Assembly: GCA_964016885.1 (NCBI GenBank)
Contig: OZ024740.1
Coordinates: 45,570,001-45,634,000, forward strand
Direction: 5' to 3'
Length of the DNA: 64,000 nucleotides
Source of the DNA: Eledone cirrhosa
Taxonomy: Eukaryota
Both the position numbers and the translations under genes were made by a program. Of this stretch, positions 9,175 to 63,594 are shown one piece after another. How positions within the stretch are numbered: the stretch's first letter is position 1; every line of letters begins with the position of its first letter. A model generated the notes under the pieces. It did no database searches, was not told the origin of the DNA, and was given only the letters and a program-made list of their open reading frames with translations.

Positions 9175-9783
9175 TATTTCAGACCTCATATGGAAGCAGT
9201 CATTGATGCTAATGGTGGATTCATTGAATGCATGTGTCAAGAAGACTCTCAAGATTATTCATGCTAATTTTTTCTCAAATAAACCTCTTCTTTCATGACC
9301 TATGTCTTTTACTAAATTCATGCAAGTGTCCTCAAAGAACTAAACAACCCTGTATGATAGAAACATTTACTATTATTTCACACATGTTGATGTATGAGCT
9401 TTTGGTTAAGAAGTTTGCTTCCCAATCATGTGGTGCCATTGAAAGAACTTTTAAGCAAGTGTTTCTACTACAGCCTCAGACCAAACCATACCTTGTGGGT
9501 GAAATTGGGTATTCAGAAAGTTTGTGGAAGCCCATTGAATGGACAGTATTTGTAAACTGATAGGCTCAGCTTTGCCACACAGTCACACTCATTCTGTCTG
9601 AGTTATTACCTTAAAGGTACAAGAGAATGTGGAATATTCAGCCACTAACAATATACAGAGTGCACTGGGTACATTTTATAGTAGCACCAGCATTAAATGA
9701 AAAGGATACATTGAACAATGTAGTCCTTGATAGACAAAGTTTGGATGGTCATTGCTGGAATGTCTGTGGTCATAGGGTTAAAT

Positions 9784-12700
9784 AACAACTCCAAACACTG
9801 TATGTTGAACAACAACAACAAACACTGTATGTTGAACAACAACAACAAACACTGTATGTTAAACAACAACAACAAACACTGTATGTTGAACAACAACAAC
9901 AAACACTGTATGTTGAACAACAATAACAAACACTGTATGTTGAACAACAACAACAAACACTGTATGTTAAACAACAACAACAAACACTGTATGTTGAACA
10001 ACAACAACAAACACTGTATGTTAAACAACAACAACAAACACTGTATGTTAAACAACAACAACAAACACTGTATGTTGAACAACAACAACAAACACTGTAT
10101 GTTGAACAACAATAACAAACACTGTATGTTGAACAACAACAACAAACACTGTATGTTAAACAACAACAACAAACACTGTATGTTGAACAACAACAACAAA
10201 CACTGTATGTTAAATAACAACAAAAAACACTATGTTGAACAACAATAACAAACACTGTATGTTGAACAACAACAACAAACACTGTATGTTGAACAACAAC
10301 AACAAACACTGTATGTTGAACAACAACAAAACAAACACTGTATGTTGAACAACAACAACAAACACTGTATGTTAAACAACAACAACAAACACTGTATGTT
10401 AAACAACAAACACTGTATGTTGAACAACAACAACAAACACTGTATGTTAAACAACAACAACAAACACTATGTTGAACAACAACAACAAACACTGTATGTT
10501 AAACAACAACAACAAACACTGTATGTTAAACAACAACAACAAACACTGTATGTTGAACAACAACAACAAACACTGTATGTTGAACAACAACAACAAACAC
10601 TGTATGTTGAACAACAACAACAAACACTATGTTGAACAACAACAACAAACACTGTATGTTGAACAACAACAAACACTGTATGTTAAACAACAACAACAAA
10701 CACTGTATGTTGAACAACAACAACAAACACTGTATGTTAAACAACAACAACAAACACTGTATGTTAAACAACAACAAACACTGTATGTTGAACAACAACA
10801 ACAAACACTGTATGTTGAACAACAACAACAAACACTGTATGTTGAACAACAACAACAAACACTGTATGTTGAACAACAACAACAAACACTGTATGTTAAA
10901 CAACAACAACAAACACTGTATGTTGAACAACAACAACAAACACTGTATGTTGAACAACAACAACAAACACTGTATGTTAAACAACAACAACAAACACTGT
11001 ATGTTGAACAACAACAACAAACACTGTATGTTAAACAACAACAACAAACACTGTATGTTGAACAACAACAACAAACACTGTATGTTGAACAACAACAACA
11101 AACACTGTATGTTAAACAACAACAACAAACACTGTATGTTGAACAACAACAACAAACACTGTATGTTAAACAACAACAACAAACACTGTATGTTGAACAA
11201 CAACAACAAACACTGTATGTTGAACAACAACAACAAACACTGTATGTTGAACAGCAACAAACACTGTATGTTGAACAACAACAACAAACACTGTATGTTG
11301 AACAACAACAACAAACACTGTATGTTGAACAACAACAACAAACACTGTATGTTAAACAACAACAACAAACACTGTATGTTGAACAACAACAACAAACACT
11401 GCATGTTGAACAACAACAGCAAACACTGTATGTTAAACAACAACAACAAACACTGTATGTTGAACAACAACAACAAACACTGTATGTTAAACAACAACAA
11501 CAAACACTGTATGTTAAACAACAACAACAAACACTGTATGTTGAACAACAACAACAAACACTGTATGTTGAACAACAATAACAAACACTGTATGTTGAAC
11601 AACAACAACAAACACTGTATGTTAAACAACAACAACAAACACTGTATGTTGAACAACAACAACAAACACTGTATGTTAAATAACAACAAAAAACACTATG
11701 TTGAACAACAATAACAAACACTGTATGTTGAACAACAACAACAAACACTGTATGTTGAACAACAACAACAAACACTGTATGTTGAACAACAACAAAACAA
11801 ACACTGTATGTTGAACAACAACAACAAACACTGTATGTTAAACAACAACAACAAACACTGTATGTTAAACAACAAACACTGTATGTTGAACAACAACAAC
11901 AAACACTGTATGTTAAACAACAACAACAAACACTATGTTGAACAACAACAACAAACACTGTATGTTAAACAACAACAACAAACACTGTATGTTAAACAAC
12001 AACAACAAACACTGTATGTTGAACAACAACAACAAACACTGTATGTTGAACAACAACAACAAACACTGTATGTTGAACAACAACAACAAACACTATGTTG
12101 AACAACAACAACAAACACTGTATGTTGAACAACAACAAACACTGTATGTTAAACAACAACAACAAACACTGTATGTTGAACAACAACAACAAACACTGTA
12201 TGTTAAACAACAACAACAAACACTGTATGTTAAACAACAACAAACACTGTATGTTGAACAACAACAACAAACACTGTATGTTGAACAACAACAACAAACA
12301 CTGTATGTTGAACAACAACAACAAACACTGTATGTTGAACAACAACAACAAACACTGTATGTTAAACAACAACAACAAACACTGTATGTTGAACAACAAC
12401 AACAAACACTGTATGTTGAACAACAACAACAAACACTGTATGTTAAACAACAACAACAAACACTGTATGTTGAACAACAACAACAAACACTGTATGTTAA
12501 ACAACAACAACAAACACTGTATGTTGAACAACAACAACAAACACTGTATGTTGAACAACAACAACAAACACTGTATGTTGAACAGCAACAAACACTGTAT
12601 GTTGAACAACAACAACAAACACTGTATGTTGAACAACAACAACAAACACTGTATGTTGAACAACAACAACAAACACTGTATGTTAAACAACAACAACAAA

Positions 12701-14187
12701 CACTGTATGTTGAACAACAACAACAAACACTGCATGTTGAACAACAACAGCAAACACTGCATGTTGAACAACAACAACAAACACTGCATGTTGAACAACA
12801 ACAACAAACACTGCATGTTGAACAACAACAACAAACACTGTATGTTGAACAACAACAACAAACACTGTATGTTGAACAACAACAACAAACACTGTATGTT
12901 AAACAACAACAACAAACACTGTATGTTGAACAACAACAAACACTGTATGTTGAACAACAACAACAAACACTGTATGTTGAACAACAACAACAAACACTGT
13001 ATGTTGAACAACAACAACAAACACTGTATGTTGAACAACAACAACAAACACTGTATGTTGAACAACAACAACAAACACTGTATGTTGAACAACAACAACA
13101 AACACTGTATGTTGAACAACAACAACAACAAACACTGTATGTTGAACAACAACAACAAACACTGTATGTTAAACAACAACAACAAACACTGTATGTTGAA
13201 CAACAACAACAAACACTGCATGTTGAACAACAACAACAAACACTGCATGTTGAACAACAACAACAAACACTGCATGTTGAACAACAACAACAAACACTGC
13301 ATGTTGAACAACAACAACAAACACTGCATGTTGAACAACAACAACAAACACTGCATGTTGAACAACAACAACAAACACTGCATGTTGAACAACAACAACA
13401 AACACTGTATGTTAAACAACAACAACAAACACTGTATGTTGAACAACAACAACAAACACTGTATGTTAAACAACAACAACAAACACTGTATGTTGAACAA
13501 CAACAACAAACACTGTATGTTGAACAACAACAACAAACACTGTATGTTAAACAACAACAACAAACACTGTATGTTGAACAACAACAACAAACACTGTATG
13601 TTGAACAACAACAACAAACACTGTATGTTGAACAACAACAACAAACACTGTATGTTGAACAACAACAACAAACACTGTATGTTAAACAACAACAACAAAC
13701 ACTGTATGTTAAACAACAACAACAAACACTGTATGTTGAACAACAACAACAAACACTGTATGTTAAACAACAACAACAAACACTGTATGTTGAACAACAA
13801 CAACAAACACTGTATGTTAAACAACAACAACAAACACTGTATGTTGAAGAACAACAACAAACACTGTATGTTAAACAACAACAACAACAAACACTGTATG
13901 TTGAACAACAACAAACACTGTATGTTGAACAACAACAACAAACACTGTATGTTGAACAACAACAACAAACACTGTATGTTGAACAACAACAAACACTGTA
14001 TGTTGAACAACAACAAACACTGTATGTTAAACAACAACAACAAACACTGTATGTTGAACAACAACAACAAACACTGTATCTTGAACAACAACAACAAACA
14101 CTGTATGTTGAACAACAACAACAAACACTGTATGTTGAACAACAACAACAAACACAGTATGTTGAACAACAACAACAACTCCAAACA
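9784..14187. repeat. 4.4-kb minisatellite, 24-bp unit (aacaacaacaacaaacactgtatgttg/a type), in TBC1D31 intron 7
   Basis: Tandem array seen directly. It is the source of the long QQQQTLYVE / NNNNKHCML / CCCCSTYSV ORFs. Confidence 0.97.
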
Positions 14188-17243: not shown

Positions 17244-17888
17244 CAGGATTAAATCAGTATTAAACTAGTTAGACCATTATTCAACAGAGTACTTGATATA
17301 TGGGATAGAAGAACTAGCTGTTGAAACAGCAAGAGCTCAGCTGTTGGGCCCAAACTCTTTCTAATATATATCTATATATCAAGGAAAATGATGAAGTTTC
17401 GTTTACATGTAGTTAGTTTTTTATTGTGTATCAACCTGTTATGTGCATTTCACAGGGGATTGGGTCAAGGTCACTCATACAAGTTATGGATCTGACTCCA
17501 TTATTGATATGCTCATCAAACTGGTGATTCGACGAAAAATTGAATTATAAATGGAGTTAGCCATTTAAGTCATATATATCAAGATATGGATAAGCTCAAT
17601 GTATTATAATTATCTGCAATCATGCACTAATTGATACATTATATATATGTGTGTGTGTATATATATATATATAGTCATCACCATTTTACATTTATTTTCT
17701 ATCCTTAAAACAGCGATGCTACTGCTGCTGATTATGATGGTGGTGGTGATGGTGATGCTGATGCTGCTAGTGATGATGATAATAATGATGATAAGGATGA
17801 TGGTGATGATAATGCTAATAATGATGGTGATGAAGCTGATGGTGATGTTGATGATTTGTTTTTGTAAAAAATACCAAAAGTTTCTTAC

Positions 17889-18037
17889 CTTGTGGAAGCA
17901 AGGGTTTTGTATTTAGTTTTCTTTCCTGGTGGAATTGGTAGTTCAAATTTACAGGTGAGTGTTTCAAGATCCCAGCCAAATATTGAATCATCTTTGAAAC
18001 ATGTAATAATAATATTACTGAGAGGTAGGAAAAACAC
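17889..18037 (-). CDS. TBC1D31: TBC1D31 coding exon 5 (VFFLPLSNIIITCFKDDSIFGWDLETL...KTLAST)
   Basis: cag|GTG...AG|gtaag, 149 nt. Matches the recalled VFFLPLSNTILSCFKDNSIFAW. Confidence 0.92.
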
Positions 18038-18690
18038 CTGAAACAGGTAATAATGATATTACTGAGAGGTAAGAACACATGAGACAGGTAATAATAATAT
18101 TACTGAGAGGTAGGAAAAACACCTGAAACAGGTAATAATGATATTACTGAGAGGTAAGAACACATGAGACAGGTAATAATAATATTACTGAGAGGTAGGA
18201 AAAACACCTGAAACAGGTAATAATGGAAGTATTAATGAGAAGTAAGAAGAACACCTGAGACAGGTGTTACTGAGAGAGACAGGTAATAATGATATTACTG
18301 AGAAGTAAGAAGAACACTTGAGACAGGTAATTATGATATTACTGAGAGGTAAGAAGAACACGAGACAGGTAATAATTGTTTCTATTTTAGGCACAAGGCC
18401 AGCAGGTAATAATGGAGGTATTAATGAGAGGTAGGATGAACACCGGAGACAAGTAATAATGGAGATATTAATGAGGTAGATAGAACACCTGAGACAGGTA
18501 ATAATAGAGGTATTAATGAGAGGTAAGAATACCTGAAGCAGGTAATAATAGAGGTATTAATGAGAGGTAAGAAGAATACCTGAAGCAGGTAATAATGGAG
18601 GTATTAATGAGAGGTAAGAAGAATACCTGAAGCAGGTAATAATGGAGGTATTAATGAGAAGTAAGTAGAACACCTGAAATATTAATCAGT
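18000..18690 (-). repeat. 41-45-bp minisatellite made of the TBC1D31 exon 5 start plus acceptor AG
   Basis: Minus-strand unit cagGTGTTTTTCCTACCTCTCAGTAATATYATTATTACCTGTTT. 85-bp dimers lie near the exon and more diverged copies lie distally. Confidence 0.93.
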
Positions 18691-18803
18691 GTTAAATTGA
18701 AAGTGACTGAATAAAACATATATGGGAATGAAGTACAATTTAGAATATGATTTGCATACAAATTAATATATAAATATAATTAATAGTTTCATCTATAAAC
18801 ATG

Positions 18804-18833
<30 letters not shown>

Positions 18834-18836
<3 letters not shown>

Positions 18837-19024
18837 TGTTTCTACTTTTGGCACAAGGCCAGCAATTATCCCAGTGTATTACTGGTACTTTATTTTATCG
18901 ACCCCGTAAGGATGAAAGGCAAAGTTAACCTCGGCGGGATTTGAACTCAGACCATAAAGGGCCGTAACTCTTTGCTGCAAAGCATGGCGTCCGACCCTCT
19001 ACCGATACTGCCAATCCACCGCCC
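18834..19024 (-). mobile_element. tRNA-derived SINE family B. Other copies at about 15855-16065, 20910-21465 (three), 27492-27640, 34289-34468, 43220-43420, 45685-45830, 50030-50437, 53547-53730, 63281-63437
   Basis: Minus strand GGGCGGTGGATTGGCAGTATCGG (A box)...GAGTTCAAATCC (B box)...tgtgccaaaagtagaaacaattattatt tail. Many dispersed copies in this window. Confidence 0.85.
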
Positions 19025-21962: not shown

Positions 21963-22141
21963 CTCAGTAATGTTGATACTTTCACTAATATTTAACTTTT
22001 TTAGTTGCTGAAATTTCTCCAGGTTCCAAAGAAGAGCATCATCCACTGATACAGTGATAGCAAATTTACCACTAGCATGTACTGAGATGTTATTGATTGC
22101 TGTTTGATGGCCTCTCATTTCAGCAACTAATTCTTTGGTTT
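21963..22141 (-). CDS. TBC1D31: TBC1D31 coding exon 4 (TKELVAEMRGHQTAINNISVHASGKFAIT...SINITE), WD40 repeat
   Basis: tag|AA...GAG|gtatg, 179 nt. Matches the recalled TKELVSWMRGHESSVFSISVHASGKYAIT. Confidence 0.93.
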
Positions 22142-24259: not shown

Positions 24260-24487
24260 GTTTAAAGTACCTAGCTGGTATCTGGGAGATATGGGATTCA
24301 ATTCCACGAGTGACCCTCGGAAGTGTCCGCCCTATTAGGGAATTTTCCTTTGTTTCAATTTTTTGTTACTTCCTTTGTTATTATTTTCATTTACACACAG
24401 AAATGCCCATTTGTATCGTCCTGTACTGTCCAGTGCTGTCCTTAATGTTATACCTTATGTCAACCCTTGTGGTTAATAAAGAAAGCA

Positions 24488-25478
24488 TTATTACCTATAT
24501 CATAACGGAGTAAGGTCATTGATTATTACCTATATCATAACAATGTAAAGATATTATTACCTATATCATAACAATGTAAAGATATTATTACCTATATCAT
24601 AACAATGTAAAGATATTATTACCTATATCATAACAGTGTAAATATATTATTACCTATATCATAACAGTGTAAATATATTATTACCTATATCATAACAGTG
24701 TAAATATATTATTACCTATATCATAACAGTGTAAAGATATTATTACCTATATCATAACAGTGTAAAGATATTATTACCTATATCACAACAGTGTAAAGAT
24801 ATTATTACCTATATCATAATAATGTAAAGATATTATTACCTATATCATAACAGTGTAAATATATTATTACCTATATCATAACAGTGTAAATATATTATTA
24901 CCTATATCATAACAGTGTAAAGATATTATTACCTATATCATAACAGTGTAAATATATTATTACCTATATCATAACAATGTAAAGATATTATTACCTATAT
25001 CATAACAGTGTAAAGATATTATTACCTATATCATAACAGTGTAAAGATATTACTACCTATATCATAACAGTGTAAAGATATTATTACCTATATCATAACA
25101 GTGTAAAGATATTATTACCTATATCATAACAGTGTAAAGATATTATTACCTATATCATAACAGTGTAAAGATATTATTACCTATATCATAACAGTGTAAA
25201 GATATTATTACCTATATCATAACAGTGTAAATATATTATTACCTATATCATAACAGTGTAAAGATATTATTACCTATATCATAACAGTGTAAAGATACTA
25301 TTACCTATATCATAACAGTGTAAATATATTATTACCTATATTATAACAGTGTAAAGATATTATTACCTATATCATAACAGTGTAAAGATATTATTACCTA
25401 TATCATAACAGTGTAAAGATATTATTACCTATATCATAACAGAGTAAAGATATTATTACCTATATCATAACAGTGTAA
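24488..25478 (-). repeat. 31-bp minisatellite (~31 copies) made of the TBC1D31 exon 3 end plus 5' splice site
   Basis: Minus-strand unit TTACACTGTTATGATATAG|GTAATAATATCT. The first copy is the real exon end (25460). Confidence 0.95.
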
Positions 25479-28224: not shown

Positions 28225-28271
28225 CTACAAAAGAAGAGAAACATATACCCAGTGTGAAAGGTGTTAGAAAA

Positions 28272-28677
28272 TAACCCTTCTGTTACCATATTTCTAATTG
28301 AAAGACACTCCCTATGTCATTAGCGGTTTCATTACCATATTTCAATGAATGACACTCCCTATGTCAATAGCCCTTTTGTTACCATATTTCTAATGAAAGA
28401 CACTCCCTATGTCAATAGCTCTTTTGTTACAATATTTCTAATGAAAGATACTCCCTATGTCAATAACCCTTTTGTTACAATATTTCTAATGAAAGACACT
28501 CCCTATGTCAATAACCCTTTTGTTACAATATTTCTAATGAAAGACACTCCCTGTGTCAATAGCCCTTTTGTTACAATATTTCTAATGAAAGACACTCCCT
28601 ATGTCAATAGCCCTTTTGTTACCATATTTCCAATGAAAGACACTCCCTATTTCAATAGCCCTTTTGTTACCATATTT
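28272..28677. repeat. 48-bp minisatellite, left half; it resumes at 32713-32855 after the LINE insertion
   Basis: Unit ttctaatgaaagacactccctatgtcaatagcccttttgttaccatat. The ORF track shows a 16-aa period. Confidence 0.92.
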
Positions 28678-31600
28678 TTCCAGCCATCCATCTAATCTAC
28701 GAAGGTATTTTAGCCTACATATTGTCGTTAATATTATGATGTTCCCTGCTGTATTAGCGTTAAATTTTCCCTGCTGTATTAGCGATAAATTTTCGAGGGT
28801 TTCTCTTAGTAGTTTTTCATGACGTTATTATTGTTAATTTTACTGATGTAGTATTAACTTATTAACTTGGATATTTACCATGCGGTATTCTAATCCTATT
28901 GTATCTCTCTCAGTTATTTACCATGCGACCCTCAGTTCCTACCCCCCCTCTCTATGCACTTCGTTAAGGCTTACTACCCTGTCTTTAACCTAATTCATTC
29001 AATCTGAAAATATTGAAGAGATAAGACACTTTCCCATTCTTCTCTGCTAAAATGTATCACTAGAGCTGATTCCAATTTTTCCAGCCATCCATCTAATCTA
29101 CGAAGGTATTTTAGCCTACATATTGTCGTTAATATTATGATGTTCCCTGCAGTATTAGCGTTAAATTTTCCCTGCTGTATTAGCGATAAATTTTCGAGGG
29201 TTTCTCTTAGTAGTTTTTCATGACGTTATTATTGTTAATTTTACTGATGTAGTATTAACTTATTAACTTGGATATTTACCATGCGGTATTCTAATCCTAT
29301 TGTATCTCTCTCAGTTATTTACCATGCGACCCTCAGTTCCTACCCCCCACCCTCTCTATGCACTTCGTTAAGGCTTACTACCCTGTCTTTAACCTAATTC
29401 ATTCAATCTGAAAATATTGAAGAGATAAGACACTTTCCCATTCTTCTCTGCTAAAATGTATCACTAGAGCTGATTCCAATTTTTCCAGCCATCCATCTAA
29501 TCTACGAAGGTATTTTAGCCTACATATTGTCGTTAATATTATGATGTTCCTTGCTGTATTAGCGTTAAATTTTCCCTGCTGTATTAGCGATAAATTTTCG
29601 AGGGTTTCTTTTAGTAGTTTTTCATGACGTTATTATTGTTAATTTTACTGATGTAGTATTAACTTGGATATTTACCATGCGACCCCCAGTTCCTACCTCA
29701 CAATTTCCCTCCCCCCACCCCCACACACCACCATAGTCTATTCGACCAATCAAACCTAGCATGCCATTTCCACTGCTGCTGCTACTACCTGCCTAACTAA
29801 CTCTCTCCTCCTCTGGCGCATCCCAACACACCCTGCCATTACCCCACCACCACTGTTCTTCTAGCCCTCAATTTTCCCACCGTTATGGATGGATGAGCTG
29901 GGAATACACGAGCAACTCTGAATCAATAGATGAAATATGAATCTGCGAGCTACCAAGCACCCACGTGAAGCGCCAACCCAGAGACCCTCCCCTACGAGTG
30001 TCGACAAATGCCCAAAACTCCGAGTTGGTACCATCAATGTAGGCTCAATGAAAGGAAGAGCAGGAGAAATCGTAGAAATGCTAGAGCGAAAGGAAGTTGA
30101 TGTATGCTGTGTGCAAGAGACTAGATGGAGAGGAGGGTCTGCTAGAGTCCTTGTAGGAAAAAGCCAGTGCTACAAATTTTTCTGGGTGGGAAATGACGAT
30201 GGGATGGGTGGTGTAGGTATACTATTAGCTGACAAGTGGGTAGATAAAGTAATCTCAGTGTACAGGGTAAATGCAAGAATCATTAAACTCAGACTAGTCC
30301 TGAATAAGACAATTACCACAATAATATCAGCTTACGCACCCCAATCGGGGCTGCCAGACGAACTTAAGGATAGGTTTTACGAGTCCCTAATACACACTAC
30401 TGCTCTAACAGACGACAAGGACTTCCTAATCATTGCAGGAGATTTTAACGGACACGTAGGTAAACACTGCGACGGCTTCAATAGAGTACATGGAGGCCAT
30501 GGAGTTGGCACAAGGAATGAGGAAGGATTCAGACTTCTAGAATTCTGCGACGCCAATGACATGTCGATATGTAACACAAACTTTAAAAAACCCGACAACC
30601 ACCTGATCACCTATAGATCAGGGGAGCACTCTAGTCAGTTAGATTTTATCCTCATCAGAGGACGTGACAGATGGACGGTCGTAAACACAAAAGCCTTCCC
30701 TAGTGAGGAATGTACATCCCAACATAGCTTAGTTGTCAGCGACCTCACGGTCAGAACTAGACGAGCCCTGAAACAGAGGCCAACCTGGAGAAGAAAGATC
30801 TGGAAGCTGAAAGTCCCCTCAACCAGTAACAGATTTAAAGATATTTTACTCAACGCCTACGACAGTAAAGAAGAACAGATAGAGACATTTAACGTAGAAG
30901 AGAACTGGGAGTTCCTAAAAAATAACTTACTAGAGGCGACGGATGAGGTTTGTGGCTGGAGTAAGACCTCAAGCAGGAGGAGAGTGACTTGGTGGTGGAA
31001 CAATAAGGTAGATGAAGCAGTCAAGGCCAAGAGACAGGCATGGAAAGAATGGAAGAACGGGGGGAGCAGGGTACATTACATAGAGACCAAGAGGGAAGCT
31101 AGGCGACAAGTATACTTAGCTAGGAGGGAAGCAGAGGATAGAAAATTCAAGCATGTTTTACAACGTGAGGACCAGAAACAGGAGGTATTCAAGATTGCGA
31201 GGCAGTGTGTCAGAGATAGTTGTGATGTCATTGGAGAGAAGTGTATCCGGAATGATAAAGGTGAGCTTGCCCTCACAAGTGCTGAGAAGAAAGATGCATG
31301 GAAGAGTCATTATGATAGATTACTAAATGAGGAGAATGCATGGGAAGAAGAGACCCTACCCCACGTAGACCCTATAGAGGGACCAGCAGTACAAGTCAGC
31401 GGCAGCATAGTAAGTAAGGCAATCAGAGATATGAAGATAGGGAAGGCAACCGGTCCATCGGGTATAGCTGCCGAGATGCTGAAGGCATCTGGGTCTGTAG
31501 GTCACACTATAACCACACGTATCGTTAACCAGGTAATACTAGAGGGGGCCATACCAAAAGATTGGTGCAGTAGCATTATTGTCAACTGCTACAAAGGTAA

Positions 31601-32712
31601 AGGCGATGCACTAGATAGAGGAAACTATAGAGGTATAAAGTTGATGGACCAGGTCATGAAAGTAACAGAAAGAGTTATAGCACAGCTGATTAGGGACCGG
31701 GTGAATATAGACGAGATGCAATTTGGGTTTGTACCAGGGAAAGGCACCACTGATGCCCTCTTCCTTGTGAGGCAATTACAGGAAAAGTACCTAGCTAAAA
31801 GTAAGCCACTCTACTTGGCATTTGTCGACCTTGAGAAAGCCTTTGACAGAGTTCCACGTGCAGTAATCTGGTGGGCTCTTAGAAAACTAGGAGTAGATGA
31901 ATGGCTTGTGAAAGCGGTACAAGCCATGTATAGGGGAGCAGTCAGCAAAGTTAGGATTGGCAATGAGTATAGCGAGGAATTTAGCGTACAGGTTGGGGTC
32001 CACCAGGGCTCTGTTCTTAGCCCTCTCCTGTTCATCATAGTCCTGCAGGCAATAACGGAGGAGTTTAAGACCGGATGCCCATGGGAACTCCTGTATGCTG
32101 ATGACCTCGCACTCATAGCTGAATCTATGGTAGAACTAGAGAATAAATTCCAAACCTGGAAGCAGGGACTAGAGAGAAAGGGTCTCAAAGTCAACATGAC
32201 AAAGACTAAGGTCCTTATAAGTAGACGAGAAAACAGAACCCAGATCCCCTCAGGGAAATGGCCTTGCTCAGTATGTAGGAAAGGTGTAGGTAGGAACTCC
32301 ATTCTCTGCCCCAAATGCAAACAATGGGTACACAAGAGATGTAGCGGGATCTCAGGAAGCTTAATTAAGAATGTAGGATTCACATGCAGCAGCTGTGCTG
32401 AAACAGCAAGCAAACAGCCACAGGAAACAAGTACCACCAATCTCTGGGAGGGCCCTGTAGAAACAGTAGACAGCTTCTGCTACCTAGGTGACCGAATTAG
32501 CAACGGAGGTGGGTGCTCAGAAAGTACAATAACTAGGGTAAGAACGGGATGGAAGAAGTTTAGGGAACTACTACCACTGCTAGCTGCAAAAGGCTTCTCC
32601 CTCAGAATGCAAGGCATGGTCAGCCGACCAGACACTGCCCACAACAGGACAACCCGTCTAACCCATGTTAGCGTGGAAGAACGGACGTAAAACGGTGATG
32701 ATGATGATGATG
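28678..32712 (+). mobile_element. RTE-clade LINE, near full length, with tandem ~400-bp 5' monomers and an internal 3' deletion
   Basis: Inserted within one minisatellite unit, with a (GAT)n tail. Monomers start at about 28681, 29082 and 29486. Confidence 0.9.
29937..32690 (+). CDS. RTE ORF: AP endonuclease, reverse transcriptase, PHD-like Cys/His finger; C-terminus truncated
   Basis: Endonuclease VGTINV, VQETRW, GDFNGH; RT QFGF, HQGS, YADD; finger CSVC..CPKCKQWVHKRC..CSSC. Confidence 0.93.
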   Translation: MNLRATKHPREAPTQRPSPTSVDKCPKLRVGTINVGSMKGRAGEIVEMLERKEVDVCCVQETRWRGGSARVLVGKSQCYKFFWVGNDDGMGGVGILLADKWVDKVISVYRVNARIIKLRLVLNKTITTIISAYAPQSGLPDELKDRFYESLIHTTALTDDKDFLIIAGDFNGHVGKHCDGFNRVHGGHGVGTRNEEGFRLLEFCDANDMSICNTNFKKPDNHLITYRSGEHSSQLDFILIRGRDRWTVVNTKAFPSEECTSQHSLVVSDLTVRTRRALKQRPTWRRKIWKLKVPSTSNRFKDILLNAYDSKEEQIETFNVEENWEFLKNNLLEATDEVCGWSKTSSRRRVTWWWNNKVDEAVKAKRQAWKEWKNGGSRVHYIETKREARRQVYLARREAEDRKFKHVLQREDQKQEVFKIARQCVRDSCDVIGEKCIRNDKGELALTSAEKKDAWKSHYDRLLNEENAWEEETLPHVDPIEGPAVQVSGSIVSKAIRDMKIGKATGPSGIAAEMLKASGSVGHTITTRIVNQVILEGAIPKDWCSSIIVNCYKGKGDALDRGNYRGIKLMDQVMKVTERVIAQLIRDRVNIDEMQFGFVPGKGTTDALFLVRQLQEKYLAKSKPLYLAFVDLEKAFDRVPRAVIWWALRKLGVDEWLVKAVQAMYRGAVSKVRIGNEYSEEFSVQVGVHQGSVLSPLLFIIVLQAITEEFKTGCPWELLYADDLALIAESMVELENKFQTWKQGLERKGLKVNMTKTKVLISRRENRTQIPSGKWPCSVCRKGVGRNSILCPKCKQWVHKRCSGISGSLIKNVGFTCSSCAETASKQPQETSTTNLWEGPVETVDSFCYLGDRISNGGGCSESTITRVRTGWKKFRELLPLLAAKGFSLRMQGMVSRPDTAHNRTTRLTHVSVEERT

Positions 32713-35700
32713 ATTTCTAATGAAAGACACTCCCTGTGTCAATAGCCCTTTTGTTACAATATTTCTAATGAAAGACACTCCCTATGTCAATAACCCTTTT
32801 GTTACAATATTTCTAATGAAAGACACTCCCTATGTCAATAACCCTTTTGTTACAAGCAGAAAGAGTAATGTGAAATAAAGTGTCTTGCTCAAGGATATAA
32901 TGCATCACCTGGTCCTGGACTGAAACTCACAACCTCACGATTGTGAATCCAATTCTCTTACCACTAAGCCATGTAATTTTTATCATCATCTAAGCTATAT
33001 AATTTTTATCATCATCATCAGGGCTTAACATCTATTTTCCATGCTTGCATGTGTTAGATGTGTTGACATATTCTGCGGCTAGATAGATCAGGTGACTATG
33101 TCTTGCTCTTATGTTCAAGTTTGGGCTTGGTTTCTGCAGTGTGTACTGGGAGCATTTTATTGTAACTCTGGTACTACTACCATTTTATAGAGTGGGATAG
33201 GCAGCATTTTTATCAAGGTACTAGCACCTGGTAGGCATTGGTGGGAGTGGGATGGGGGAATGGGGTCTTGCCACCATGAGAGAAGTGTTTTGTACCTGTT
33301 AGAAATCCTTGTTAGTAGTAGTGGTGGTAGTAGTGTCATGTTGTTGAAAGCTAGGTTTCAGTACACTGACAATAGATCTTCTTTGAAGAAAATGACATTA
33401 ACTCTTGTTTGATTCAATGGCTTTATTTCATATATAATACAGGTTAGGGTTCATTAGGATTAGCGTTTTCTGTCAACTTGTGTGTATGTCAGCAAAGTAT
33501 GGATGGGCTGAGAGAAAAACTAAATATAAGAGGAATCAATGTAGTGTACAAGAGAGAAGACTGCACTGGTATGGACATATATGTGATGCATATAGATGGT
33601 GATTGTTGTGTGAAGTGCCATTAGTTTTCAGTGGAAGGAAGTTGCAGTAGAGGAAGACCTGGGCAGAAGTAGTGAGAGCAGATCTCAAAATGCTGAACCT
33701 GGCTGAGATGATGATGAAGAAACACAGTAGATGGAGGGAAGCTGTTGTAATGGAATACTCCTATGTTTTACCTGGTGAAGATTCGAAACCGAATCTGAGG
33801 GTTCTCGCCTCTAAAACTACCTATTGTTGGTAATTCCCAACCATTGTCCTGTCAAGAGACAATTATGACAAACGTATATACCACTTGACCTGTGACCCCA
33901 GGTTCTTGACAGATGAAACACACATGGCTGCTCCTAAATCAACCCATATACATATCCTTCTAGCTATAGGGTTATAGCTAGAAGGATATTATAAATACAA
34001 GTACTTAGAGAGTCCACCAGAGAGACCGAAGCAGCAGTCTGTGAGAGGTTAACAATGTAGCATATTCACTTTCTACAGACCTTTCACTCTCTCTCTCTCC
34101 TGGCCTTACAGGCTCTCACATTTCATACCAGCTCGGCAGATTGACCACTACGTATGCTAAGGATAGACACACACGCACAGTAGGTTTACTTATATTTTCC
34201 CTACTCTTTCGTCTTCCTGTTATTTCACTTCTATCTATTGTATCGTTTTATTGATACATGCTAGCTCGAAGTAGCTAGTCAGAAAATAATTGTTTCTACT
34301 TTAGGCACAAGGCCAGCAATTACCCAGTGCATTACTGGTACTTTATTTTATCGACCCCGTAAGGATGGAAGGCAAAGTCAACCTCGGCGGGATTTGAACT
34401 CAGATCGTAAAGGGACGTAACTATGTTGGAAAGCATGGCGTCCGACCCTCTACTGATACTGCCAATCCAAGAAAATAATGTAGTGATAATTGCTGTCACG
34501 ATTTTATTACTCGACATTCAATGTACCAACAAGTGAATTTTGTTATTATAAAATAAACATTGTCAACATCACAATTCTTGCATCATTCTTATTATCATTC
34601 ATCCTGAAAAGAATACATCTATTCACTACATAATGGTGACCCCCATCACTACACTGTGTTGGAAAAGACCTGTCTAACCCATGCTAGCATGGAAAAAACA
34701 GGCATAAAAGGGTGGTTGTTGATGATGATGTTGATAAGGGGGAAAGCATGGGAAACGAATCTGGTGAATCAGATATTATTTTCTTCAAAGGAGAGCTATT
34801 GTCAAGGATACCCTTGGGTTTAGGGGCCCTCATGTAAAACATTCATGACAATGTTCTCTGTTAATAGCGCCATGACAACAAAGAACCTCTGTATAGTCGT
34901 TGATATGTGTTAGAAATAGCAGCCAAATCACACCATCTTTCAAATACGGAAGGATATAGTAAAGATATAAATTATGTCTGAAAAGAGGGAATTGTCACAA
35001 CTAGAATGCCTGTTGATCACAGGTCTGTTTGACCAGGGCTGCTGATCTGGAAGTAAATACCAACACCCATATGGTAAAAACAATGTCTCATTTATTTATG
35101 GGTCACGGAGAATCTTACCCTAATACAATTTTGGAAAACAACTTTTTTTCCCCAGAATAGTAATGTCCTATTTCAGATGTAGGAAGCTGAAGAAAGTTTC
35201 GAGAAAAAATAAATAAATAAAAATGAATGTTGAATGTTTGTGATAAAATGGAAATTTCGAAAACATTTTTTAAGAATCGTAATCCTTTATGTTTCAAATG
35301 TGCGAACATAAAGAAATTTTCGATATAGAATAAAAAGTTAGTGACTCGAAATTCAGCCCTTTATTTTTGTTCATTTCATACTACAAACATATTATTTTAT
35401 AATAGTTACATAACATAATAGGTTATTTTTTATTTTCATAAACGAGATTTGATTAGCATATAATTAATTAATGGACGATTCTTCACATTATGTAACGGTA
35501 TAAAATGTATTGTAAATAAAGACATCTTGTTTCATCCAATATTGTCTCGTATACTCCACAACTTTCTAGTATAAGAGACAAAACAAGAAATCCAGTAGCA
35601 TTATCGTCATCATAAACATAATTATACGTCCACATCTCATGTTTGGACGGGTTGTTACGGTCCGAGTCAGTTTTTATTCGGAGTTTCTGACGTCCTAGAC

Positions 35701-54874: not shown

Positions 54875-54929
<55 letters not shown>

Positions 54930-54946
54930 CATATATATATATATAT

Positions 54947-54995
<49 letters not shown>

Positions 54996-55044
54996 TATAT
55001 ATATATATACACACATATATATATATATATATATACATATATAT

Positions 55045-55120
55045 TTATTAAGATAACAGATTAAAGTTTAAGCAAAGATTCGCTGCTTTCACCCTTAACG
55101 GGATCTTCTGAAACTGAGTT
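55045..55120 (-). mobile_element. Solo terminal fragment of the 38290-41440 Penelope family with the same variant hammerhead (55065-55115)
   Basis: Reverse complement of 41374-41440 with few substitutions, again abutting (TA)n. Confidence 0.8.
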
Positions 55121-55189
55121 ATATATTTGATATATATTTATCCTTATCGAGCCCTCTTTGGATTTTAGTCTTCAAATTTATTATTATTA

Positions 55190-58170
<2,981 letters not shown>

Positions 58171-58369
58171 ATATAAGTATATTTTGCGTTAAGTTGCGTC
58201 CCTTTACGTTTAAGGGTTACTAAGCCATTCGTTAAATATATATTTATAGATTGATAAAATAAGCATCGGATTGAAATAATCAATATAGTAGGGTCGATAT
58301 TTTTCGACTAAAATCCCTTGATACTGGTGCCTCAGTATAGCTGCAATTTTACGACTGGAACCAGTAAAA

Positions 58370-58810: not shown

Positions 58811-59272
58811 CTGAAATGTGTAAAAAAAAACAAACAAATGAAAATATCACTGAAATTTGTAAAAAAAAACAAACAAATGAAAATACTGAAATATGTAAAA
58901 AAAAACAAATGAAAATTTCTCTGAAATGTGTAAAATATGGGTGAAATTTCACTGAAATATGTAAAACATGGATGAAATTTCACTGAAATGTGTAAAACAT
59001 GGGTGAAATTTCACTGAAATGTGTAGAACATGGATGAAATTTCACTGAAATGTGTAAACATGGGTGAAATTTCACTGAAATGTGTAAAACATGGGTGAAA
59101 TTTCACTGAAATGTGTAAAACATGGGTGAAATTTCACTGAAATATGTAGAACATGGATGAAATTTCACTGAAATGTGTAAACATGGGTGAAATTTCACTG
59201 AAATGTGTAAAACATGGGTGAAATTTCACTGAAATGTGTAAAACATGGGTGAAATTTCACTGAAATGTGTGA
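58811..59272 (-). repeat. 31-bp (39-bp next to the exon) minisatellite made of the transglutaminase last-exon acceptor
   Basis: Minus-strand unit ttttacacatttcag|TGAAATTTCACCCATG; the real junction is ttttacacatttcag|TGATATCCCTCCACATG. Confidence 0.92.
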
Positions 59273-59279
59273 AAATTAT

Positions 59280-59470
59280 ATTATCAAATGTTCACACATT
59301 ATATAATCCGGATTATATTATCTAATGTTCACACATTATATAATCCGGATTATATTATCAAATGTTCACACATTATATAATACTGATTACATTATCCCAC
59401 GTCCACACATTATACAATCCGGATTATATTATCCAGGTTGCAGGCATTATGTAATCCGAATTATATTATG
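59280..59470. repeat. ~37-bp tandem array (atcaaatgttcacacattatataatccggattatatt)
   Basis: Seen directly; contains the palindrome atataatccggattatat. Confidence 0.8.
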
Positions 59471-62320: not shown

Positions 62321-63594
62321 TGTGTCTATCATTATTGTGGTTAATAAAGAAATACTTATTATTATTATTATAGAGGTGACTGTTCAGAATCACTTTTAAA
62401 TGAGAAACGACACAACAGCAGCAGCACAGCAGCAACAACAGAAGCAACAACAACAGCAACAACAGCAGCAAAAACAATGACCAATTTTTAATAAAAATTA
62501 AAAACAACTCCCTCAAAAAACTTTAGCCGCATTAAACACTAAACTTGTGGTCGCTATAAAATATGTTTGGAGGGTATGATAGCTGGTAAGAGAAACCAAG
62601 TATACCCCTGTGGCAGATGGAGAGACCAGATCTTAAAATGGTCTCAACGTTTATCACAGACAGAACTGAATGTAACGACAAGAAACGTGTGTGGGTGTCT
62701 CTGTAAAATCTATCTGGAGGGCATGATACATGGAAAGAGATAGTGAGGACACTCAAAAAGATCTGATCTTAATATGGTCTCCATGTAAACCATAAACAGA
62801 ACTCAATGCAATGACAATAAATAAGAATATATGGAAAAAATATGTTCATGGTGTTTTGTACTTAACTGTAAGTTGAAATAACGATTGAAACAAATGATAA
62901 ATCTATATTATAAAAGGAAAGCTCTTTCTATATCTGTCTGTCCGTCACACATATATGTAGAATGAGGGAAAGAAGAGGAATGAAAAGGAGAGGCAACTCC
63001 ATTTTTAAGTTGATTGGAGAAGGGAGTTAATTTATCATACTTATAGTTTATTGCAAGGGTTAGAGGTAATAAGGTAGAGATCTGTAGAAGGGTGGTGGTG
63101 AGGAACCAGTGGAGAGGAGAGACCAAATATTAAATAAGAAATTTGTAGAGGAAGAAATGAATTAGTTTAGCTAATGAAACAAAACTACACATTTTAAAGA
63201 GTTCCTACATTAATTAATATCTTCCTACATAAATTTATATAAGAATCATATGTTAAGTTCCGATCTTTGTAATTAAATAATTGTTTCTATTTTAGGCACA
63301 AGGCCAGCAATTACCCAGTACATTACTGGTACTTTATTTTATCGACCCCGTAAGGATGAAAGCAAAGCTAACCTCGGTGGGATTTGAACCCAGATCATAA
63401 AGGGACGTAACTCTATGCTTCAAAGCATTGTGTCCGAATGAATAATTATAGTAATTCACATTAAACTCTTCATTGATTAATTGAAATAGGGTGTCATTCG
63501 TTAGAAATATGGTCACAAAAGGGTTGAAACAATCATGATGAAAAACATATGCAGGATGAAAAGTTGAAGGATTTGGAAAAAGAAAGCTACTTAC

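Follow-up and report, generated by a model that had tools for sequence, protein, structure and literature searches.

Mirages, i.e. tandem copies of an exon-intron boundary, are known from amphioxus. Many of these copies carry AG/GT, their number is unstable, and splicing is reported to be left undisturbed (PMC3087553). They were reported for the globin genes BflGb6 and BflGb9 and for Adh3 (PMC3087553, PMC3902484), and PGBD5 and troponin C were added as further cases (PMC3902484). The BflGb6 unit (150-160 bp) is composed of the 3' end of an intron together with the 5' portion of an exon, and the Adh3 units measure 10-72 bp. A boundary repeat on the donor side is found in human F7, where the 37-bp VNTR of intron 7 provides functional pseudo-sites, with use restricted to the exon-proximal one (PMC1557585). 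De Grassi and Ciccarelli described minisatellite-driven elongation of exons and introns in human paralogues (PMC2812944).

The array in front of exon 5 of TBC1D31 in the window, a stretch of 64,000 nt of Eledone cirrhosa DNA, is a mirage, a kind of structure already described from amphioxus. With the amphioxus mirages it shares minisatellite-like junction units, partial retention of AG/GT, copy-number variation and local homogenisation. In contrast to them, it occurs in a cephalopod mollusc, contains 1-6 intron bases per unit and draws its branch-like motif and its tract from codons. With the F7 VNTR it has in common a boundary-spanning repeat, identical pseudo-sites and exon-proximal use. However, the F7 repeat affects the donor side, whereas the exon 5 array lies on the acceptor side, where the used site is the most downstream AG/GT. 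The direct analogue of F7 is a second array, situated at the exon 3 donor. Tandem duplication at AG/GT, conversion of exon sequence into intron and a longer intron link the locus to the study of De Grassi and Ciccarelli and to the Rogers model (cited in PMC3087553). That study deals with paralogues from segmental duplications, whereas here a single-copy conserved gene is concerned and no new intron has arisen. No report on mirages in cephalopods was found in the literature covered by the search, with most subscription papers outside it.

The gene is octopod TBC1D31 and lies on the minus strand. Six of 28 candidates proved to be relatives of exon 5 (17889-18037). The top one is TBC1D31 of Octopus sinensis (96%), and the proteins of O. 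bimaculoides and O. vulgaris fall into the same cluster. Nine coding exons were placed by tblastn between 37335 and 7509, and this agrees with the exon and intron numbers (exon 5, intron 4) given in the initial annotation. Joined via 18037, exons 1-9 yield 409 codons with 0 stops. The gap-free alignments comprise 374/409 identical residues with O. sinensis, 371/409 with O. bimaculoides, 355/409 with Argonauta and 288/409 with Sepia. For exon 5 alone, Pfam returned no family. The coordinates of all features are compiled in Table 1.

Table 1. Features of the TBC1D31 locus and related arrays in the window. A slash within a motif marks the splice junction.
Feature	Position	Strand	Description
TBC1D31 coding exon 5	17889..18037	-	149 nt, starts VFFLPLSNIIITCFKDDSIFGW, phase-0 acceptor, donor AAG/GTAAGA
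Working 3' splice site, exon-derived	18038..18061	-	branch-like CAGTAAT from codons S-N, tract from I-I-T-C-F, CAG
Youngest layer, two 85-nt dimers	18038..18207	-	sequence comparison of units
Mirage array	18038..18673	-	13 units, 41-82 nt; 7-24% divergence from exon copy
ATT-tailed dispersed repeat 3' end, 26 nt	18366..18413	-	insert 18377-18402 in unit 18443
Distal 47-nt-family units	18444..18673	-	extra codon; 7/7 branch-like CATTAAT at -25; CAG/GT at 18488, 18532, 18579, 18626
Likely original intron 4 end	18674..18706	-	unique AT-rich; ATTTAAC with A at 18692; TTTCAG/GT at 18673
Exon 4	21963..22141	-	ends GAG/GTATGT; partner donor of intron 4
Second mirage, exon 3 donor of TBC1D31	24487..25478	-	31-nt unit, 32 motifs AG/GTA(A/G)TA
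Third mirage, last-exon acceptor, transglutaminase-like gene	58811..59275	-	14 upstream ATTTCAG copies; 30-31-nt and 35-39-nt units

The initial annotation had proposed that tandem duplication shifted the acceptor of exon 5 by ~640 nt. The distance is indeed 636 nt (18038-18673), and it is filled by 13 units that each start like exon nt 1 (unit starts at 18078, 18122, 18163, 18207, 18254, 18317, 18361, 18443, 18488, 18532, 18579, 18626 and 18673). We hold with high confidence that these 636 nt represent 13 junction copies, that the acceptor at 18037 is derived from the exon and likely serves the mRNA, and that the intron probably ended at 18673 originally. Outside the array, the first 43 nt of the exon reach a maximum score of 31 in 2 x 1278 windows, and the exon itself scores 86. 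In addition, the 30-mer at the exon 5 junction scores above all 300 shuffled versions of the neighbouring intron sequence. This means, the exon copies in intron 4 are not due to chance. Divergence from the exon amounts to 7% in nearby and 16-24% in far units and rises with distance (rho 0.83 for 13 non-independent units).

The units belong to two families, one of 47 nt with an extra codon, which is mostly distal, and one of 41/44 nt, which is mostly proximal. Both separate in the unit tree, which is too short for ordering events. The unit had been described as the first 44 nt of the exon. Copies of the exon start are present, but simple 44-nt copies are not: the lengths vary from 41 to 82 nt in the two families. 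In register, one unit corresponds to 43 exon nt and the last intron G, and owing to TTTCA microhomology the breakpoint may lie anywhere within 6 nt. Probably, the final 1-6 bases of the intron belong to the unit, which is hence a boundary repeat. Because the unit that was duplicated reaches across the splice junction, the new acceptor is chimeric. The earlier view that it arose from exonic sequence holds for most of its length, and its final 1-6 nt possibly stem from the old acceptor. As in other mirages, units homologous to the junction lie beside the authentic exon, and many, not all, keep the splice dinucleotide; CAG precedes 8 of the 13 upstream unit starts. Concerted evolution of neighbouring units, a further feature of mirages, is found as well. 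Decoy 18122 equals the working site 18037 across 103 nt upstream and 35 nt downstream, and decoy 18207 equals it across 18 nt upstream and 35 nt downstream. Unit 18207 is identical to 18122 and unit 18163 to 18078, and units 18626 and 18579 differ at 1 of 47 nt.

One retroposon-like tail interrupts this pattern. The insert is flanked by 11-nt direct repeats (18403-18413 and 18366-18376) and is missing from the array of organism B (see below). Nine further copies of the dispersed repeat exist in the window, and the one at 63307 is identical over 26 nt. In runs X4-X7 the repeat reaches very high depth, and its loose ends run into (AAT)n. The insert looks like a 5'-truncated retroposon insertion with target-site duplication; alternatively, it may have come from templated repair using the copy at 18862.

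The working acceptor reads attattacctgtttcag/GTGTTT at 18037 on the minus strand. As stated in the initial annotation, the intron sequence in front of it copies exon nt 28-43 (ATTATTACATGTTTCA), i.e. the codons I-I-T-C-F. The branch consensus is YNYTRAY. CAGTAAT, whose predicted branch A is located at 18059 (-22), agrees with it at 6/7 positions by consensus match only, compared to 7/7 for the motif of the distal units. The tract contains 71% pyrimidines, and the six other acceptors of TBC1D31 contain 65-82%. The far acceptor, cactgattaatatttcag/GTGTTC at 18673, is located 636 nt upstream of 18037. It had been reported together with a branch-like motif. The acceptor itself could be confirmed, but in CACTGAT the A is at -13, and ATTTAAC, with its A at -19, is better placed. 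The old intron terminates in ...ATATTTCAG, and TTTCAA is found at exon nt 39-44. The array terminates at a unit start equivalent to exon nt 1, which is preceded by unique sequence ending in TTTCAG. Tandem duplication leaves the original flank in place as the unique flank of the first copy, unless it was rearranged later, and this argues for 18673 as the old intron end.

As had been noted, the reading frame is lost at the decoys 18122 (+85) and 18207 (+170). Their number was underestimated, because the array contains 8 upstream CAG/GT sites and not 2-3. Among the CAG/GT sites, only 18532 and 18673 are in frame by length, with stops at codons 116 and 39, respectively. Splicing to any of the 17 AGs between 18061 and 18673 would run into a stop before exon 5 ends, and a coding role for the array is therefore out.

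Public sequencing data allowed a look at both the spliced form and other species. Sixteen runs are listed, none recorded as RNA, and four of them (X4-X7) were compared at 80% likeness. X8-X13 contain small shares and were outside the comparison. All data from X4-X7 are contigs, in which rare forms are lost, and differences less than ~30 letters from piece ends are apparently unlisted, as inferred from the table. Blanks were not counted as evidence: they comprise the array outside the dispersed-repeat tail in X4, exon 5 in X6 (organism C), and 18054-18350 as well as 18417-18830 in X7 (organism D). X4, a run of the same species, contains one 623-nt contig (depth 3.7) that lies on 17888-18039 only. 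It shows 0 differences there and extends past the exon 5 match by 103 and 368 letters. It overshoots exon 5 by the AG ending exon 4 and the G starting exon 6. Since exons 4 and 6 share these letters with the introns, the contig looks as a molecule spliced at 18037 would. As to the junction check at 18037 suggested previously, the contig supports use of this site: it covers exactly exon 5, at low depth and in a run not recorded as RNA. On the basis of this one contig, the acceptor at 18037 is likely used in mRNA. Use of the exon-proximal site by the normal mRNA is typical of mirages, and here it is supported by one contig at depth 3.7, with minor use of decoys possible.

Organism B (X5) is represented by one 790-nt contig spanning 17856 to 18777. 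For exon 5, pS is 0.17 in organism B and 0.64 in organism D. In organism B, 231 nt (record 213-443) separate the exon 5 start from 18673, and hand counting yielded ~5 units of 42, 47, 52, 43 and 47 nt. Such an unstable copy number between species, 636 nt with 13 units vs. 231 nt with ~5 units, is again a mirage feature. Both lengths, 636 and 231, are divisible by 3, which is regarded as a coincidence (1 in 9). The unique intron flank above 18673 is common to the window and organism B, and in B this flank is joined to the exon via a shorter array. The earlier proposal that 18673 is ancestral is therefore very likely correct. From organism D, a 371-nt genomic contig aligns on 17879-18043, i.e. 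six bases into the intron, and its 139 further upstream letters do not continue the exon-derived acceptor beyond TTTCAG. An array-free orthologue with the exon-derived acceptor, named previously as the case that would speak against an ancestral 18673, was not seen, as organism D departs beyond this TTTCAG. The shorter array of B together with the departure of D 6 nt above the exon indicates that the array grew in steps, and makes 18673 very likely the old intron end. Organism B has as its exon-proximal unit a member of the 47-nt family, to which the unit above decoy 18207 in the window also belongs. Hence, the two 85-nt dimers likely arose later, in the lineage of the window. Exon codon 12 is ACC in organisms B and D and in 13/13 copies, and ACA in the exon of the window. 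As the exons of B and D agree with all copies, the copies keep the older state of this codon. Some copies share ATC at codon 9 (18011) with the exon of organism D and TGC at codon 13 (17999) with that of organism B; these may be old states or the result of array-exon conversion.

A metagenome scan yielded 457 pattern matches and one locus (L001, 68% aa). Its intron has the same position and phase as intron 4, and no junction copy was found in 1984 nt upstream. Intron gain by tandem duplication according to the Rogers model was rejected, as the X4 contig starts at the 18037 copy and the intron of L001 agrees in position and phase. Intron sliding was rejected on the gap-free alignment of exons 1-9 to Octopus, Argonauta and Sepia proteins. 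Both fail because the mRNA is unchanged.

Very probably, repeated junction duplication has lengthened intron 4 at its 3' end, and former coding sequence now serves as the acceptor. The locus had been called a snapshot of intron extension by duplication. This description is adequate, with the additions that several rounds were involved and that the kind of event is known from mirages. In the proposed mechanism, slippage or unequal exchange would have involved two TTTCA motifs, one in the old acceptor and one at exon nt 39-43. This would have duplicated the final G of the intron together with 43 exon nt and re-created CAG/GT (TTTCAG/GTG) 44 nt downstream. By chance, the duplicated codons may have contained a branch-like TRAY as well as a pyrimidine-rich tract, and the downstream copy could then function at once. 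Use of an upstream AG would cause a frame shift or a stop; hence, only the exon-proximal site would be selected. Furthermore, exon definition with the donor at 17888 could favour the proximal site, and nonsense-mediated decay might hide leaks. The freed copies would then have behaved like a minisatellite, with local homogenisation and one retroposon-tail insertion, and later the first 35 nt of the exon may have been re-copied (18207, 18122). Branch points, exon definition and decay are predicted components of this mechanism. The protein is unchanged, and intron 4 is longer at its 3' end. Most likely, the array is a tolerated by-product.

At 3 of the 23 placeable splice sites in the window, the neighbouring 300 nt contain copies of the junction that outscore 300/300 shuffles. 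In the second mirage, at the exon 3 donor, 7 of 7 downstream donors tested meet a stop. The most distal unit of this array is 35 nt long and diverged. The third mirage is located in a transglutaminase-like gene, for which Pfam gave sub-cutoff Transglut_C matches for 2/4 pieces. A 37-nt array (59275-59469) lies directly upstream of it, and 3.3 kb of extremely strand-skewed (TA)n/(CATA)n microsatellite (54876-58182) are found just downstream of the gene. Other repeats populate the introns of TBC1D31. An array of 27-nt units (9777-14178, 4.4 kb, ~165 copies) starts ~60 nt inside intron 7; according to the shuffle test it is not junction-derived. Arrays of 48-nt units occupy two places in intron 1 (28270-28677 and 32713-32855), one of them ending ~45 nt above the exon 2 acceptor, and a 404-nt repeat (28674-29665) is located between them. 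Antisense to the gene, intron 1 also contains a LINE-type element (29934-32690, plus strand) with a 918-codon frame for endonuclease, reverse transcriptase and PHD-finger.

The conservation of the old site is not what pure neutrality would lead one to expect, and the better match of the distal units to the branch consensus (7/7, vs. 6/7 at the working site) also speaks against it. In organism B, the old acceptor has 0 differences in 33 nt where divergence nearby is ~12-17% (P 0.01-0.035). No difference is listed over 18665-18706, compared to 7 in 18707-18747 and an exon pS of 0.17. For 18674-18700, the interval chosen in the initial annotation, 0/27 vs. 7/47 positions differ (Fisher one-sided P 0.035); simulation gave P 0.026 for this interval and 0.010 for 18674-18706. 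These values would fit a site at 18673 that is still used, either as a recursive AG/GT intermediate or as a regulated unproductive acceptor sending transcripts to decay, and a recursive step would lead to the same mRNA as that of X4. We consider such continued use unlikely. An unchanged run of at least 42 nt anywhere in that piece has a P of 0.057, the regenerated donor GAG/GTGTTC is weak, missing positions +4 to +6 of the donor consensus, and no molecule joined at 18673 was seen in one low-depth run (X4). As the conservation is based on one species pair only, it is a lead for continued use and not a finding. Very unlikely is a further view, namely that 18673 is not ancestral and that an old deletion or insertion brought in a flank which resembles an acceptor by chance. 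An array-free species matched to 18674-18700 was not obtained, and the L001 acceptor agrees with the old site at 8/12 nt and with the working site at 6/12 nt, both within the 5-10/12 of unrelated acceptors. However, the flank above the array ends with TTTCAG exactly at the unit start equivalent to exon nt 1, organism B has the same arrangement of flank and array, and the alignment of organism D likewise stops at the 6-nt TTTCAG position.

The origin of the first duplications is a separate issue. Instead of plain slippage, nicking and priming by an ATT-tailed retroposon at TATTATTACCT-like sites could have seeded them. The exon 5 and exon 3 arrays have this 11-nt word in common, on opposite strands, a degree of sharing that 3/5000 unit shuffles reached. 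The window contains 32 copies of the word, none outside these two TBC1D31 arrays, and in unit 18443 the retroposon tail with its direct repeats sits inside it. But the word was discovered post hoc and evaluated by mononucleotide shuffles only, the third mirage lacks it, and TTTCA microhomology accounts for the unit register without it. Moreover, the tail insertion is missing in organism B and so is likely later than the array. Seeding by a retroposon therefore appears quite improbable. The same low expectation applies to a broader scenario in which octopod mirages arise at a high rate and acceptors are repeatedly rebuilt, with the old TBC1D31 acceptor under selection and retroposon-seeded duplications. 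Finally, around 18122 and 18037 the two 85-nt dimers show no difference over 138 nt, and the exact copy number could be off. That the whole array is an assembly artefact has a negligible probability, as its units differ by structured substitutions, indels and the retroposon-tail insertion, and an independent species, organism B, has a related array at the same place within one contig.

Compared to the mirages known so far, the repeated junction duplication at TBC1D31 adds a comparison across species that documents growth in steps, units with hardly any intron bases, the density of mirages in the window and the conservation of the old site. It represents a dated cross-species snapshot of coding sequence turning into a working 3' splice site while the protein is unchanged. 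In addition, acceptor choice is put to a natural test here: no base distinguishes 18122 from 18037 over 103 nt upstream and 35 nt downstream, but only the exon-proximal site fits the spliced contig. This speaks for exon definition rather than first-AG scanning. The presence of three arrays within 64 kb suggests that mirages contribute to intron growth in octopods and can mislead gene annotation.
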